From assembly GCA_043813875.1 (NCBI GenBank), contig JBDRKP010000027.1, positions 1 to 26,295 of the forward strand: a stretch of DNA of 26,295 nt. The letters are read 5' to 3'. Positions within the stretch are counted from its first letter, which is position 1. Every line of letters starts with the position of its first letter. Shown here piece after piece: positions 13,191 through 21,618 of this stretch. This DNA comes from an archaeon. GTDB lineage: Archaea > EX4484-52 > B79-G9. The translations under genes and the position numbers were made by a program. The notes beneath the pieces were generated by a model. It did no database searches, was not told where the DNA came from, and was given only the letters and a program-made list of their open reading frames with translations.

Positions 13191-13766
13191 ATGTCTGAGA
13201 TGATCACTTTTACGTTTTTGCGAGAGATACAGAAGAAGGAGAGGACGTCTTCGGAGCTTTCAAAGCTTGATCCGGGGTTCTATGAGGCGGTGAAGGAGTA
13301 TATCCTGCGCAAGAAGAGGATCAGGGAGCGGGGCAAGGAACTTAGTTTCAAGGAGAAGAAGGAGATTGAGAATATCGGGCCTGTCGTGAAGTCGATTTAT
13401 GATACGCGCGAAAGGAAGATTGTCAATGGGGCGCTTCTGGCTGCAAGAACCGGCATGAAGATGGCGAATATACTTGTGCATGAGGAGAAACTGCTCGCGG
13501 ATATCTGCAAGAGGATAGAGGAGTCGCGCGCCGGGTTTGAGTATGTCCTTGGCTCAAAACCGGAATATGTTCCTGTGGGTGATAAGGCTGGTGATAAAGA
13601 GCCAGTTGATGATATGGTCAGGATCAAGGTGATTGAGGATATCCCGGAGTTTGTCGGTGAGGATCTTAAGGCTTATGGGCCGTGGAAGGCAGGCGAGACT
13701 GTCATGTGCAACCGGGATTTCTCTGTCGTGTTTATAAAGGGCGGAAAAGCGGAGGAAGTCAGGTAA
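13191..13766 (+). CDS. GINS complex subunit (Gins15/Gins51-type)
   Basis: LSKLDPGFY, IYDTRERKIV, C-terminal EDIPEFVGEDLKAYGPW B-domain; position upstream of rpl44e. Confidence 0.85.
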   Translation: MSEMITFTFLREIQKKERTSSELSKLDPGFYEAVKEYILRKKRIRERGKELSFKEKKEIENIGPVVKSIYDTRERKIVNGALLAARTGMKMANILVHEEKLLADICKRIEESRAGFEYVLGSKPEYVPVGDKAGDKEPVDDMVRIKVIEDIPEFVGEDLKAYGPWKAGETVMCNRDFSVVFIKGGKAEEVR

Positions 13767-13879
13767 TTTTTTTTTGTGAACTGCCATTAAATTTATAAAA
13801 GTAAGCATTACATATAATGTATTCTGAATTGATATTGGAACATTGGGATTATCAATTTCTAAATTTGCTGGTGATTAAT

Positions 13880-14185
13880 ATTAAAGTACCAAAAGAAACA
13901 ATGAGACATTGTCCGTCTTGCAGGAAGCATACGCCCCAGACTGTCGAGCAGGTGAAGACCGCAGGCAGAAGGTCGGGGAGCGCGCTCAAGAAGGGCACGA
14001 GAAGAAAGATAGGTAATCTGCATTATGGGTATGGGGGTTCTCCTTATCCTATGATTGAGCATGGATCCAAGTTCGGGGCAAAAACGTCGCATAAGGTTAT
14101 GCTTCGATATAAGTGCAAAGAGTGCGGCAAGAAGAATCAGGCACGGACTGCTCTTCGTGCAAAGAAGTTCGAGATTTTAAAATAA
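13880..14185 (+). CDS. rpl44e: 50S ribosomal protein L44e (eL42)
   Basis: KVPK..HCPSCRKHT, GYGG, YKCKECGK; probable start ATT 13880, 5 nt after GGTGA (alternative GTG 13871). Confidence 0.93.
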   Translation: MKVPKETMRHCPSCRKHTPQTVEQVKTAGRRSGSALKKGTRRKIGNLHYGYGGSPYPMIEHGSKFGAKTSHKVMLRYKCKECGKKNQARTALRAKKFEILK

Positions 14186-14198
14186 GCGGGTGAGCGAT

Positions 14199-14366
14199 AT
14201 TACTGGAAAATTTTTGAAGGTCAAGTGTAATAAATGTAATAACGAGCAGAATATTTACAGTAAAGCGGCAACTGAAGTGAAGTGCCTTGTATGCAAGGAA
14301 ACTATTGGTAAGAATACAGGCGGCAGAACGGACGTTGTGACAAAGGTCTTGAATGTTCAGAATTAG
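14199..14366 (+). CDS. rps27e: 30S ribosomal protein S27e (not in ORF track)
   Basis: Manual translation: (M)TGKFLKVKCNKCNNEQNIYSKAATEVKCLVCKETIGKNTGGRTDVVTKVLNVQN; probable start ATT 14199 (alternative GTG 14190). Confidence 0.95.
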   Translation: MTGKFLKVKCNKCNNEQNIYSKAATEVKCLVCKETIGKNTGGRTDVVTKVLNVQN

Positions 14367-14470
14367 TTCTGTATTTTTATGAACTCGGGTAAATTTATAA
14401 TATTTACTTTCTTATTGCATAGTATGAGTTCATGCAGATGAGATATTTTGTTCATCTTGTGGTGTGATAG

Positions 14471-15244
14471 ATGTATAACTATAAGGATTTCCCGGAAGTT
14501 GACGAGTATGTCATTGTCACTATCACGAATATCAATCCTAATAGCGCTTTCGCGAAGCTTGATGAGTATCAGAATAAGGTCGGTATGATCCATATTTCTG
14601 AGGTTGCGAGCACCTGGATACGGGATATAAGGAAGTATCTTTCTGTCGGCAACAAGAAGGTCGCCAAGGTCCTTTCGGTCGACAGGGCGAAGGGATATAT
14701 CAATCTGTCTATAAAAAGGGTCAAGCCGACTGTTGAGCGCGATAAGAAGACTGAGTGGAAGAATGAGAAGAAGGCGGAGAACCTTTTTTCGATGGTCGCA
14801 AAGAATATGGAGCTTAAGCTTGATGATGCTTATGCGAAGACCGGTTTTGAGCTTCAGAAGAAGTACGGGTTGTTGTATGGTGTTTTTGAGTTGGCTGCTA
14901 CTGAAGGCGCGTCCGCTCTTATCAAGGATGGTGTCGATGAGGCATGGGCAAAGGCGCTGGAGGATGTCGCGAAGAAGAACCTGAAGCCAAAAGAGGTTAC
15001 TGTGACCGGTATTCTTGAAATAATATCCTATAAGTCTGATGGTATCGAGGTCATAAAGAACGGGATTGCACAGCTAGATGATGAGCATGTCAAGGTTGTG
15101 TATCTGAATGCACCGAAGTATCAGATAAAGGCTACAGCACGTGATTATATTGAATGCGAGAGGATATTGAAGGAAGGCACCGGAAAGATTATCGAATATA
15201 TCACTAGGAATGGCGGAGAGGCCGTGCTTAAGAGGGAGAAGTAG
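14471..15244 (+). CDS. eif2a: Translation initiation factor aIF2 subunit alpha
   Basis: S1 domain (LDEY...GMIHISEVASTWIRDI, KGYINLSIKRV), APKY; conserved gene context. Confidence 0.96.
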   Translation: MYNYKDFPEVDEYVIVTITNINPNSAFAKLDEYQNKVGMIHISEVASTWIRDIRKYLSVGNKKVAKVLSVDRAKGYINLSIKRVKPTVERDKKTEWKNEKKAENLFSMVAKNMELKLDDAYAKTGFELQKKYGLLYGVFELAATEGASALIKDGVDEAWAKALEDVAKKNLKPKEVTVTGILEIISYKSDGIEVIKNGIAQLDDEHVKVVYLNAPKYQIKATARDYIECERILKEGTGKIIEYITRNGGEAVLKREK

Positions 15245-15257
15245 CCGGGTGAGTGAA

Positions 15258-15443
15258 ATCGTAGCGCATATCATGTTTTGTCCGAAGTGCATCCGATATA
15301 CATTAAAAGAAAAATGCCCTCAATGTATGACGATGACTTATGATCGCAAACCGGTGAAATTTTCGCCTGAGGATCGGTATGGCAAGTATCGAAGGATGGC
15401 TAGGATAGAAATGTTTGCTAAGAGCGAGAGTGGAGGAGAATGA
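15258..15443 (+). CDS. nop10: H/ACA RNP protein Nop10
   Basis: CPKCIRYTLKEKCPQC...PVKFSPEDRYGKYRR; start uncertain (ATC 15258 after GGTGA, GTG 15249 or ATG 15273). Confidence 0.92.
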   Translation: MVAHIMFCPKCIRYTLKEKCPQCMTMTYDRKPVKFSPEDRYGKYRRMARIEMFAKSESGGE

Positions 15444-15444
15444 A

Positions 15445-16230
15445 ATGGTTAAAGAGACTGTGGTTACTTTTTTGAGCAAGCCAAAATTGAATAATCCTGT
15501 ATTTATTGAAGGGCTTCCAGGTATCGGTTATATTGGCCGTAATGCGGCCGGTTATCTTGTGGATGAAGTTGGTGCTGTTAAATTTGCTGAGCTTTTATCT
15601 CCGCATCTGCCTCCTGTCGTGCTTATGGATCCGAAAAAGAACGGGATGATTGTAGGGCTTAAGAATGATTTCTATTATTATAAGGCCAAGTCCAAAACTG
15701 AGAGGGATTTGATCATATTGATCGGTGACTCGCAGAGCATGGATCCGAAGGGTCATTATGTGATTGTATCTGCTATTCTTGATACTCTGGAGATGTTCAA
15801 TGTCAAGGAAATGGTTACAATCGGTGGGTTTGGTACCGGTGAATTGAGCGAAGGGACCTCTAAGGTGTTTGGGGCTGCTATTTTGCCTGAAAAGATTGAG
15901 GCTTTCGAGAAGCTGAATGTCCAGTTCAAGGATACGAATATCGGGCAGATCATCGGTGCATCGGGTCTTCTTATCAGTCTTGGGCATCGGCGTGGCATCG
16001 AGGGGGTATGCCTCATGGGTGAGACGTCTGGGCTTTTGCTTTCTGATCCAAAATCAACTGAGGCTGTTCTTGAGGTATTAGCAAAGTATTTAAATATTAA
16101 GCTTGATATGACTCAGATTGAGAAAAGAGTGAAGGAAATCGAGAAGATGATTGAGAAGATTGAGAATCTCCAGACCAAGCTTGCGACGCATACGAAGGAT
16201 CATGATGATTCATTAGGTTATATAGGGTGA
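15445..16230 (+). CDS. Proteasome assembly chaperone (PAC2 family)
   Basis: [37 protein letters not shown]-terminal YIG; GGAGG RBS. Confidence 0.92.
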
Positions 16231-21243: not shown

Positions 21244-21300
21244 CTTCGTTGTTTGTGGCGCGGTCTTAATAATATAAACTTGCGGTGATATAAGATTCTT

Positions 21301-21618
21301 ATGAGTGATTATGTAATTGCTGTGACAACTGTAAGTGATGAAGAACATATAGAACGTATCAAAGGGGCGGTCATTGACAAAAAACTTGCAGTATGCATGA
21401 ATGTGATTCCTTCTGTTGTGAGTTATTACTGGTGGAAAAACAAGGTCAAAAAGGATGAAGAGTTCATCATACTCATGAAAACTAAAAAAAGCCTTGTTGA
21501 GAAACTGAAGATTGCAGTGTTATCGAATCATCCATATGAAGTTGCTGAATTTATAGTCATTCCTTTTGAGGATATTGGTTCGCATTATCGTGACTGGATT
21601 GACGGGGTATTGGGTTAG
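21301..21618 (+). CDS. cutA: Divalent-cation tolerance protein CutA
   Basis: KLAVCMNVIP, SYYWW, EFIILMKT, HPYEVAEFI, YRDWI. Confidence 0.95.
   Translation: MSDYVIAVTTVSDEEHIERIKGAVIDKKLAVCMNVIPSVVSYYWWKNKVKKDEEFIILMKTKKSLVEKLKIAVLSNHPYEVAEFIVIPFEDIGSHYRDWIDGVLG

Follow-up and report, generated by a model that had tools for sequence, protein, structure and literature searches.

Probable ATT and ATC start codons behind Shine-Dalgarno sites in the rpl44e-rps27e-aIF2alpha-nop10 cluster of a DPANN-type archaeon

In bacteria, AUU start codons are known for infC, which encodes the initiation factor IF3, and for pcnB, and NCBI table 11 counts ATT, ATC and ATA among the rare starts. Animal mitochondria initiate at AUA, AUU and AUC, with a modified C34 in their single methionine transfer RNA (tRNA-Met) and without a Shine-Dalgarno (SD) site. 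Here, a 26,295-nucleotide (nt) stretch of archaeal DNA (hereafter the window; contig C27 of assembly G000, GenBank GCA_043813875.1) was analysed, in which three genes of a conserved archaeal cluster, rpl44e (eL42), rps27e (eS27) and nop10, probably initiate at ATT, ATT and ATC, respectively, each placed at SD distance from a GGTGA motif. The assembly comprises 1.64 Mb in 90 contigs with 43.8% GC, and the closest sequences compared with its aIF2alpha include three, 74-75% identical, from public assemblies labelled 'Candidatus Nanohalarchaeota archaeon', a DPANN-type lineage.

A 2020 review, in its accessible part, names AUG, GUG and UUG as the only archaeal starts, and 'AUU' has 0 occurrences there (PMC7531240). 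In Pyrococcus abyssi, a 'local scanning' of triplets by the initiator methionyl-tRNA (Met-tRNAi), checked by aIF1, was described, and the aEF1A messenger RNA (mRNA) of the complex, GGAGGUGAU, resembles the sites reported here in having 5 nt after GGUGA and then the start codon; it differs from them in that the start codon is AUG, the text available having no AUU or AUC mRNA, and in that aIF1 is reported to destabilise wrong complexes (PMC6237735, PMC5103072 for scanning and layout; PMC6237735 for destabilisation). The destabilisation of non-AUG complexes by aIF1 was also attributed to Sulfolobus (as cited in PMC8211752, PMC6237735), and in Escherichia coli initiation was measured from all 64 codons (bioRxiv 10.1101/063800). 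The closest archaeal case found was that of the Asgard tubulin AtubA, for which a likely ATT start was proposed at a plausible distance from the ribosome-binding site, restoring the conserved N-terminus as in the genes discussed below; unlike them, AtubA is one gene from another phylum, mentioned in passing, and the available text makes no genome- or lineage-wide claim (PMC13394414, 2026). Our literature searches, whose coverage left out most subscription journals, returned no description of ATT, ATC or ATA starts for DPANN archaea and no systematic one for archaea. SD-led near-cognate initiation is thus a known kind of event, for which no prior description was found in this DPANN group.

The sites in the window share with infC and pcnB a near-cognate AUH codon (AUU, AUC or AUA) behind an SD site, its conservation in relatives, its omission by gene callers and, presumably, its decoding by the initiator tRNA. 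They differ from infC in their archaeal machinery (aIF1, aIF1A and aIF2, no IF3) and in the many genes affected, about 10 of the approximately 185 that are led by GGTG in the gene set built here. With the animal mitochondria they have in common that the AUN family would be accepted by the methionine initiator, unlike the mitochondrial system in that a separate, ordinary-looking initiator tRNA and an SD site are present.

The cluster spans positions 13870-15443, and its products passed the curated Pfam cut-offs (bits/cut-off: L44e 53.8/25, S27e 56.8/24.5, Nop10 63.6/27.2 and aIF2alpha 88/22.8). Its genes and their SD sites are the following.

13870..13875, + strand: SD site GGTGAT of rpl44e, complementary to the 16S 3′ end, with the spacing kept in 10 family genomes and in other archaea
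13880..14185, + strand: rpl44e (eL42/L44e), read from ATT 13880; Pfam PF00935; stop TAA 14183-14185; alternative start GTG 13871
14189..14193, + strand: SD site GGTGA of rps27e, 3 nt past the rpl44e stop, kept in relatives
14199..14366, + strand: rps27e (eS27), read from ATT 14199; Pfam PF01667; alternative start GTG 14190
14461..15244, + strand: aIF2alpha with SD GGTG 14461-14464; ATG 14471; stop TAG 15242-15244; Pfam PF07541 and PF00575 (eIF2alpha and S1)
15248..15252, + strand: SD site GGTGA of nop10, 3 nt past the aIF2alpha stop
15258..15443, + strand: nop10, read from ATC 15258; Pfam PF04135; alternatives GTG 15249 and ATG 15273

A first-pass annotation, made from the letters of the window, had drawn attention to isoleucine codons standing five nt after GGTGA at the 5′ ends of these genes, and all three sites read as it described: GGTGA 13870-13874, TTAAT and ATT 13880-13882, followed by AAA GTA CCA AAA, for rpl44e; GGTGA 14189-14193, GCGAT and ATT 14199-14201, followed by ACT GGA AAA TTT, for rps27e, which indeed lacks an in-frame ATG in its N-terminal part; and GGTGA 15248-15252, GTGAA and ATC 15258-15260, followed by GTA GCG CAT, for nop10. 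Its caveat that the GTG inside each GGTGA (13871, 14190 and 15249) is in frame also applies in G000. Since the 3′ end of the G000 16S ribosomal RNA (...GGATCACCTCCT) pairs with GGTGA(T), this motif is a genuine SD sequence. The five nt after GGTGA correspond to 6 nt after the GGTG core, and this spacing falls inside the main range used by the ATG starts of G000, of which 60 stand 5 nt, 43 stand 6 nt and 46 stand 7 nt past GGTG. The mere number of such motifs in the window did not exceed chance, as GGTGA-N5-ATY (N5, any five nt; ATY, ATT or ATC) occurred 5 times where 2.24 occurrences were expected, and a count of 5 was reached in 12 of 100 shuffled sequences; three of the five matches coincide with the 5′ ends of conserved genes, one each, inside a 1.4-kb span. 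Significance comes, then, from the position of the motifs, the relatives and the genome-wide tally, and not from the motif count in the window.

To compare the 5′ ends, the cluster was taken from 40 relatives across 8 families of the order, the window's family being represented by 16 genomes in the collection, and the starts were aligned. In genera g1 and g2, every one of the 10 rpl44e loci has ATT or ATC at this codon, each behind GGTG(A/G)-N5. Elsewhere in the order, the aligned codon was TTG in genus g3 and in genome G019, and ATG in more distant families. A metagenome scan yielded 80 loci, only two of them close (L132, 87% identity, and L133), neither of which discriminates, by a stop or frameshift between the two codons, an ATT from a GTG start. 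Among 79 other archaeal metagenome loci, the aligned codon was ATG in 61, TTG in 14, GTG in 3 and ATT in 1; the sole ATT locus, L132, lies at contig coordinates identical to those of the G003 rpl44e, and therefore represents the same lineage and not a separate case. GGTG plus 6 nt was kept in 16 of the 17 rpl44e loci with TTG or GTG, and in 14 a stop codon stands directly before the start, so that the GTG of the SD site is not the start there. The alignment indicates that the SD-N5-start layout is ancestral for rpl44e.

For rps27e, the codon was ATT in 10 loci, comprising genera g1 and g3, G019 (family f5) and the metagenome locus L133, and ATG in 13 other relatives, including genus g2, whose products begin with MTGKF, MSGKF or MVGRF against ITGKF in G000. 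The Pfam profiles led to the same codons: counted from the GTG, residues 6-55 of S27e match profile positions 3-52 and residues 7-53 of Nop10 match positions 4-50, and in both cases profile position 1 extrapolates to the isoleucine codon, the ATT of rps27e and the ATC of nop10. The placement of the ATT and ATC codons at the initiation position, as proposed from the window, agrees with these extrapolations and with the orthologue alignment, in which their columns match ATG, and also TTG and GTG, of relatives.

The nop10 gene offers the finest comparison, because both kinds of start occur among congeners: the aligned codon is ATC or ATT in five and ATG in three (IVAHIMFC against MVPHIMFC). Codons 2-5 of the five ATY congeners differ by synonymous changes only (GTA/GTT, GCG/GCA, ATC/ATT), which indicates that these codons are translated and that the start lies at or before codon 2; the three ATG congeners additionally show an Ala/Pro and one Val/Ile change. 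The internal ATG 15273 was considered as the nop10 start and was ruled out by the conserved, translated codons 2-5. In G005, the SD-ATC spacing of nop10 is 4 and the GTG of the SD site is out of frame, while the TGA of aIF2alpha lies five codons upstream and the in-frame codons between (ACG GGT GAG ATT) include none of the canonical starts. When canonical alternatives were sought, rpl44e, rps27e and nop10 of G000 each had an in-frame GTG and nop10 of G005 had none usable.

A genome-wide tally was also made in G000. The gene set consisted of 1,617 open reading frames (ORFs) of at least 75 codons, 1,574 with a closed 5′ end, and the in-frame codons up to and including the first canonical start were counted by their distance from the GGTG core. 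At 5-7 nt (n=278), ATG was found 149 times, TTG 17, GTG 8, ATT 9, ATC 9 and ATA 5. With codons directly before ATG left out, the 76 non-canonical codons at 5-7 nt comprised 14 ATT or ATC, and the 294 at 10-20 nt comprised 14 as well (odds ratio 4.5; p=2.8e-4 by a one-sided Fisher test), the control being this within-genome comparison of distances, as all other genomes scanned lie inside the order. By distance, the excess appeared at 6 nt (ATH, that is ATT, ATC or ATA, 9 of 23, p=5e-4) and at 7 nt (ATY 6 of 27, p=0.003), with no ATH or ATY excess at 4, 5, 8 or 9 nt after GGTG. No enrichment of ATA, CTG or ACG/AAG/AGG was observed at 5-7 nt after GGTG in G000. The excess of ATT and ATC at SD distance, seen in a tally of the kind that the first-pass annotation had proposed as a check, would represent about 10 real cases, in addition to the 174 canonical starts led by GGTG.

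Of the 23 candidates listed in G000, six are simply followed by ATG and five are hard to explain away: these five genes have no usable canonical start, and if translation began at the following canonical codon, each would lose part of a Pfam domain. They are given below (+72 and the like is the offset of the next canonical codon).

C53:3145-4494, - strand: FAD (flavin adenine dinucleotide) oxidoreductase; TGA-TTT-ATC-ATC; domain (Rossmann fold) profiles from residue 7; next canonical +72
C23:8339-8797, - strand: DMRL-synthase-family gene; GGAGGTGA-N6-ATT with the TGA of the SD site in frame; profile position 2 at residue 1
C88:1134-2306: LigT-metallophosphoesterase fusion; TGA in frame; next canonical +48
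C5:36296-37837: Memo-AMMECR1 fusion; next canonical +146, within the Memo domain
C51:4337-4936, - strand: rpS3Ae; ATC 5 nt after GGTG; next canonical +29

Three of the five, the DMRL-family gene, the oxidoreductase and rpS3Ae, were confirmed by relatives. The DMRL-family gene, which we take to be probably an archaeal riboflavin synthase, has ATT in all six full-length orthologues, four of them with an in-frame TGA; G007, in which the match began at residue 20, and one fragment were left out of this comparison. The aligned oxidoreductase codon is ATG in G002, ATA in G001 and G009, and ATT or ATC directly behind a stop codon in G006 (TAA-ATT), G013 and G015 (TGA-ATT) and G011 (TGA-ATC), with GxGxxG 8-10 codons downstream in each case; in most other families an ATG stands at or beside this codon, and the start in genus g2 is not clear. 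For rpS3Ae, ATC was found in 7 of 7 loci of the genus, ATA in genus g2 and ATG elsewhere (MAR[KR]TTG); the GTG of the SD site is out of frame in four of the genus loci, and in G005 an ATG lies in frame some 7 codons upstream. It was also observed that the DMRL-family ATT (G000:C23 near 8797, L081; likewise L082, L083 and L087) overlaps the TAG of the upstream gene (tATTAG), which by its sequence appears to be an ATGA-like coupling junction on a non-canonical start.

The same codons were encountered in sister families. The first-pass annotation had stated that aIF2alpha itself keeps ATG, and this holds for the window (GGTGT-GATAG-ATG 14471), the whole of its family and G023, but not for families f3 and f2. 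In f3, aIF2alpha appears to begin with ATC, ATC and ATT behind GGTGA-N5 in L023, L025 and L026 (G017, G029 and G024, respectively), and in f2 with ATA behind GGTG(A)-N5 in three of four loci (L021, L022 and L024, from G016, G028 and G032), the f2 ATA being aligned with the ATG of G023. The GTG of the SD site is in frame in each of these f3 and f2 loci; G024 has an ATG two codons upstream and G028 one nine codons downstream. In the 395 kb scanned of G017 (f3), only three ATH candidates were found, and all of them are translation genes: aIF2alpha (GGTGA-N5-ATC), rpl44e (ATT-AAA-ATG-CCA, aligned with MKMPK) and eS26 (L256:9951-10211, contig C5 of G017), whose ATT lies three codons downstream of the in-frame TGA of the SD site GGGGGTGA. 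The codon aligned with this ATT is ATG in the eS26 of G000 (C67:29245-29502). In about 350 kb of family f4 (G025 and G018), plausible ATT or ATA starts occurred on two genes, presumably, by their N-terminal motifs, a 2-oxoacid:ferredoxin oxidoreductase gamma subunit-like and an HD hydrolase-like gene. G017, G025 and G018 had been tried as negative controls and were rejected, as they themselves show plausible ATH starts. Such starts would therefore be a habit of the order and not special to the cluster; the sequences thus favour lineage-wide relaxed initiation, one of the two explanations first offered for the window, with other genes and sister families in need of ATT, ATC or ATA, over the other, a fidelity feedback circuit.

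The position of the codons, their conservation, the complementarity of the SD site and the fact that other genes require such starts are observed, and the ATT of rpl44e and rps27e and the ATC of nop10 are, with a probability of about 0.7, real initiation codons used through SD-led near-cognate initiation. Pairing of the 16S 3′ end with GGTGA(T) would bring the codon that follows after 5 nt into the P site, and there the CAU anticodon of Met-tRNAi would pair with AUU or AUC despite the third-position mismatch, the strong and well-spaced SD duplex presumably compensating for the weak codon. The proteins would then begin Met-Lys-Val-Pro-Lys, Met-Thr-Gly-Lys-Phe and Met-Val-Ala-His-Ile, and ATG, TTG and ATT/ATC/ATA would replace one another at SD-led starts across the order. 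Either the aIF1 check would be leaky in these archaea or a low efficiency would be tolerated.

Several observations weigh against this interpretation. The GTG of the SD site shares the frame of ATY, without an intervening stop, in 10 of 10 rpl44e, 10 of 10 rps27e and four of five nop10 loci that bear ATY; five of the ten ATY rpl44e loci have an in-frame ATG directly before that GTG, where G000 has CTG; and the spacing after GGTGA varies from about 4 to 7 nt among the ATG-bearing relatives of rps27e. The relatives compared are kin, so that few independent events are represented, and the gene set behind the statistics came from a crude ORF picker. Finally, the initiator tRNA and aIF1 were inspected, as the first-pass annotation had advised, and both proved ordinary, no molecular cause of relaxed selection being found in them. 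The initiator tRNA (C76 2539-2656, - strand) shows A1:U72, an anticodon stem with three G:C pairs, the anticodon CAT and a normal loop; aIF1 is present, with no family-specific change at conserved sites among 29 aligned relatives. ARAGORN and Rfam recovered only 16-26 tRNAs, an incomplete set, in which a second initiator-like tRNA may be missing. The sole unusual feature of the initiator tRNA was a 41-nt intron at the canonical position, and the tRNA-Ile (TAT) at C42:22641-22776 was found to carry a 61-nt intron.

The in-frame GTG gives rise to the strongest alternative, according to which the GTG inside GGTGA is the true start, an ancestral ATG having decayed to ATT or ATC while initiation moved three codons upstream. 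The proteins would be M-I-N-I-K-V-P-K, M-S-D-I-T-G-K and M-S-E-I-V-A-H, and the ATT and ATC ordinary isoleucine codons. GTG is an accepted archaeal start, according to the accessible part of the review cited above (PMC7531240), and since the GTGs of rps27e and nop10 lie 4 nt past the upstream stop, an SD-less termination-reinitiation is conceivable. Such an SD-less route would be needed, as no SD-like motif was found upstream of any of the three GTGs, and from the established geometry a 30S subunit paired to GGTGA should not be able to hold the same GTG in its P site. The layout itself speaks for the downstream codon: rpl44e of other archaea has the same SD-N5-start arrangement with a stop codon in between, and a model mRNA of P. 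abyssi, employed in 30S-binding and toeprinting assays, carries GGUGA-N5-AUG (PMC6237735). At the distance of 6 nt, where the GTG is in frame, ATH accounts for 9 of 23 codons against 29 of 294 in the background, a fourfold excess that is not expected of ordinary fourth codons. Between GTG and ATY lie two codons that show no conservation (in rps27e S-D, S-N, K-I, V-T and I-I), and conservation begins sharply at ATY. Moreover, GTG is rare behind GGTG in G000 (8 against 149 ATG), and the GTG of the G005 nop10 is out of frame. Initiation at GTG is accordingly judged unlikely, and for rpl44e and rps27e, where the sequence leaves it as the alternative, GTG would be the less likely start.

A broader proposal takes the ATT and ATC codons as starts and adds a function to them. 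Start selection would be relaxed across the order, and perhaps in GGTG-SD archaea generally, with AUH routine for a few percent of SD-led genes and kept preferentially on stand-alone translation genes (eL42, eS27, eS26, eS1, Nop10 and aIF2alpha) as a throttle through which their output would follow initiation stringency. That such starts recur on stand-alone translation genes is striking; as a whole, the proposal is quite doubtful.

The feedback circuit suggested by the first-pass annotation presupposes ATT and ATC as starts, and holds that the weak starts form a dedicated circuit around aIF2alpha, in which eL42, eS27 and Nop10, and in sister families aIF2alpha itself, track stringency in the manner of infC. 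Indeed, ATH recurs within the cluster, on rpl44e (f1, f3), rps27e (f1, f5), nop10 (genus g1) and aIF2alpha (f3, f2), and translation genes (aIF2alpha, eL42 and eS26) account for all three candidates in G017. However, only one of about 13 non-trivial candidates in the unbiased G000 list is a translation gene, the others including the FAD oxidoreductase, the DMRL-family gene, Memo-AMMECR1, the LigT fusion, TldD, UbiX and a transporter. Among the 28 ORFs of the main ribosomal operon in G000, a start could be read for 25 ribosomal-protein and allied genes, and none is ATH, all being ATG except for a single TTG; many of these genes are without a GGTG site. With infC, the fidelity factor's own gene bears the weak start, whereas aIF1, which rejects non-AUG complexes, starts with ATG in G000 and in 29 of the 29 relatives read (one further locus was unreadable), so that the autoregulatory logic is not reproduced here. 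Neither is the weak start conserved across the lineage, as it is for an infC-type system: nop10 flips between ATG and ATC within one genus, rps27e has ATG in g2, rpl44e has TTG in g3, and eS26 has ATT in G017 and ATG in G000. A dedicated fidelity circuit is thus not supported and appears improbable.

That the codons are assembly or sequencing errors or belong to decaying pseudogenes is hardly credible, despite the fragmented assembly and the lack of a run contig over the rpl44e site (13822-14004 uncovered), since up to 10 relatives, each assembled independently, share these codons, the genes have undisrupted reading frames, the Pfam scores stand well above cut-offs and contigs from public runs, the best DNA run of which may be the source sample and hence not independent, showed 0 differences at the rps27e and nop10 sites, which reproduces the bases for two of the three sites.

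Further features surround the cluster and occur in other parts of the genome. Pfam identified Gins51 upstream and a PAC2-family gene downstream, and two elements precede the rpl44e SD site.

13793..13800, + strand: TATA-box-like element TTTATAAA, by the TATA consensus, some 70 nt ahead of the SD site of rpl44e
13847..13862, + strand: conserved element GATTATCAATTTCTAA, upstream of the rpl44e SD site

The position of the TATA-like element implies a leadered, and not leaderless, rpl44e mRNA, if the element is a promoter. The second element was kept in the five genus genomes seen (L002, L003, L005, L007 and L008), at a distance from the SD site that varies by about 12-19 nt, and it may be an operator in the 5′ untranslated region or a promoter-proximal element; an Rfam scan of 13700-15500 with E up to 1 returned no match. 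Groundwater sequencing runs contain this population, and a contig from a groundwater metatranscriptome library (X5, 14153-14317, 0 differences) spans the rpl44e stop and the rps27e start; it is compatible with co-transcription of the two genes, DNA carry-over being possible, and speaks for presence and not for start position.

Additional candidate starts were also noted. In the window, the CutA1 gene (21295-21618) has GGTGAT, 6 nt and ATT-CTT-ATG, the ATG standing 12 nt past GGTGAT; the ATT may be used as the start, and the Pfam profile, with position 2 at residue 8 counted from ATT, is ambiguous. On contig C53, an ORF reading ...ILVTSALPYANG (G000:C53:9948, + strand), which we call MetRS-like from this motif, shows GGTGAT-TGAA-ATC, with in-frame ATG, TTG and GTG 6, 4 and 3 codons upstream, respectively. 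The proteasome beta subunit (C53:25742-26371) may start at an ATA 6 nt after GGTG, with the GTG in frame, and the AI-2E transporter (C53:28919-29953) may start at an ATA directly after an in-frame TGA, its next canonical codon being +21.

Common gene finders generally consider ATG, GTG and TTG only, and would truncate or mis-extend such proteins in DPANN assemblies: the oxidoreductase would lose its first 72 residues together with the Rossmann fold, and the Memo domain about 100 residues. Mis-called starts of this kind would distort family alignments, marker detection and metabolic calls in a poorly known group. Reconstituted archaeal systems could also make use of these sites as natural leaders in tests of start-codon fidelity. 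If the codons are used as proposed, the archaeal aIF1/aIF2 machinery would tolerate a third-position start mismatch so frequently that ATG, TTG and ATH could replace one another in the course of evolution, an interchange that would extend to ribosomal protein genes and to aIF2alpha.

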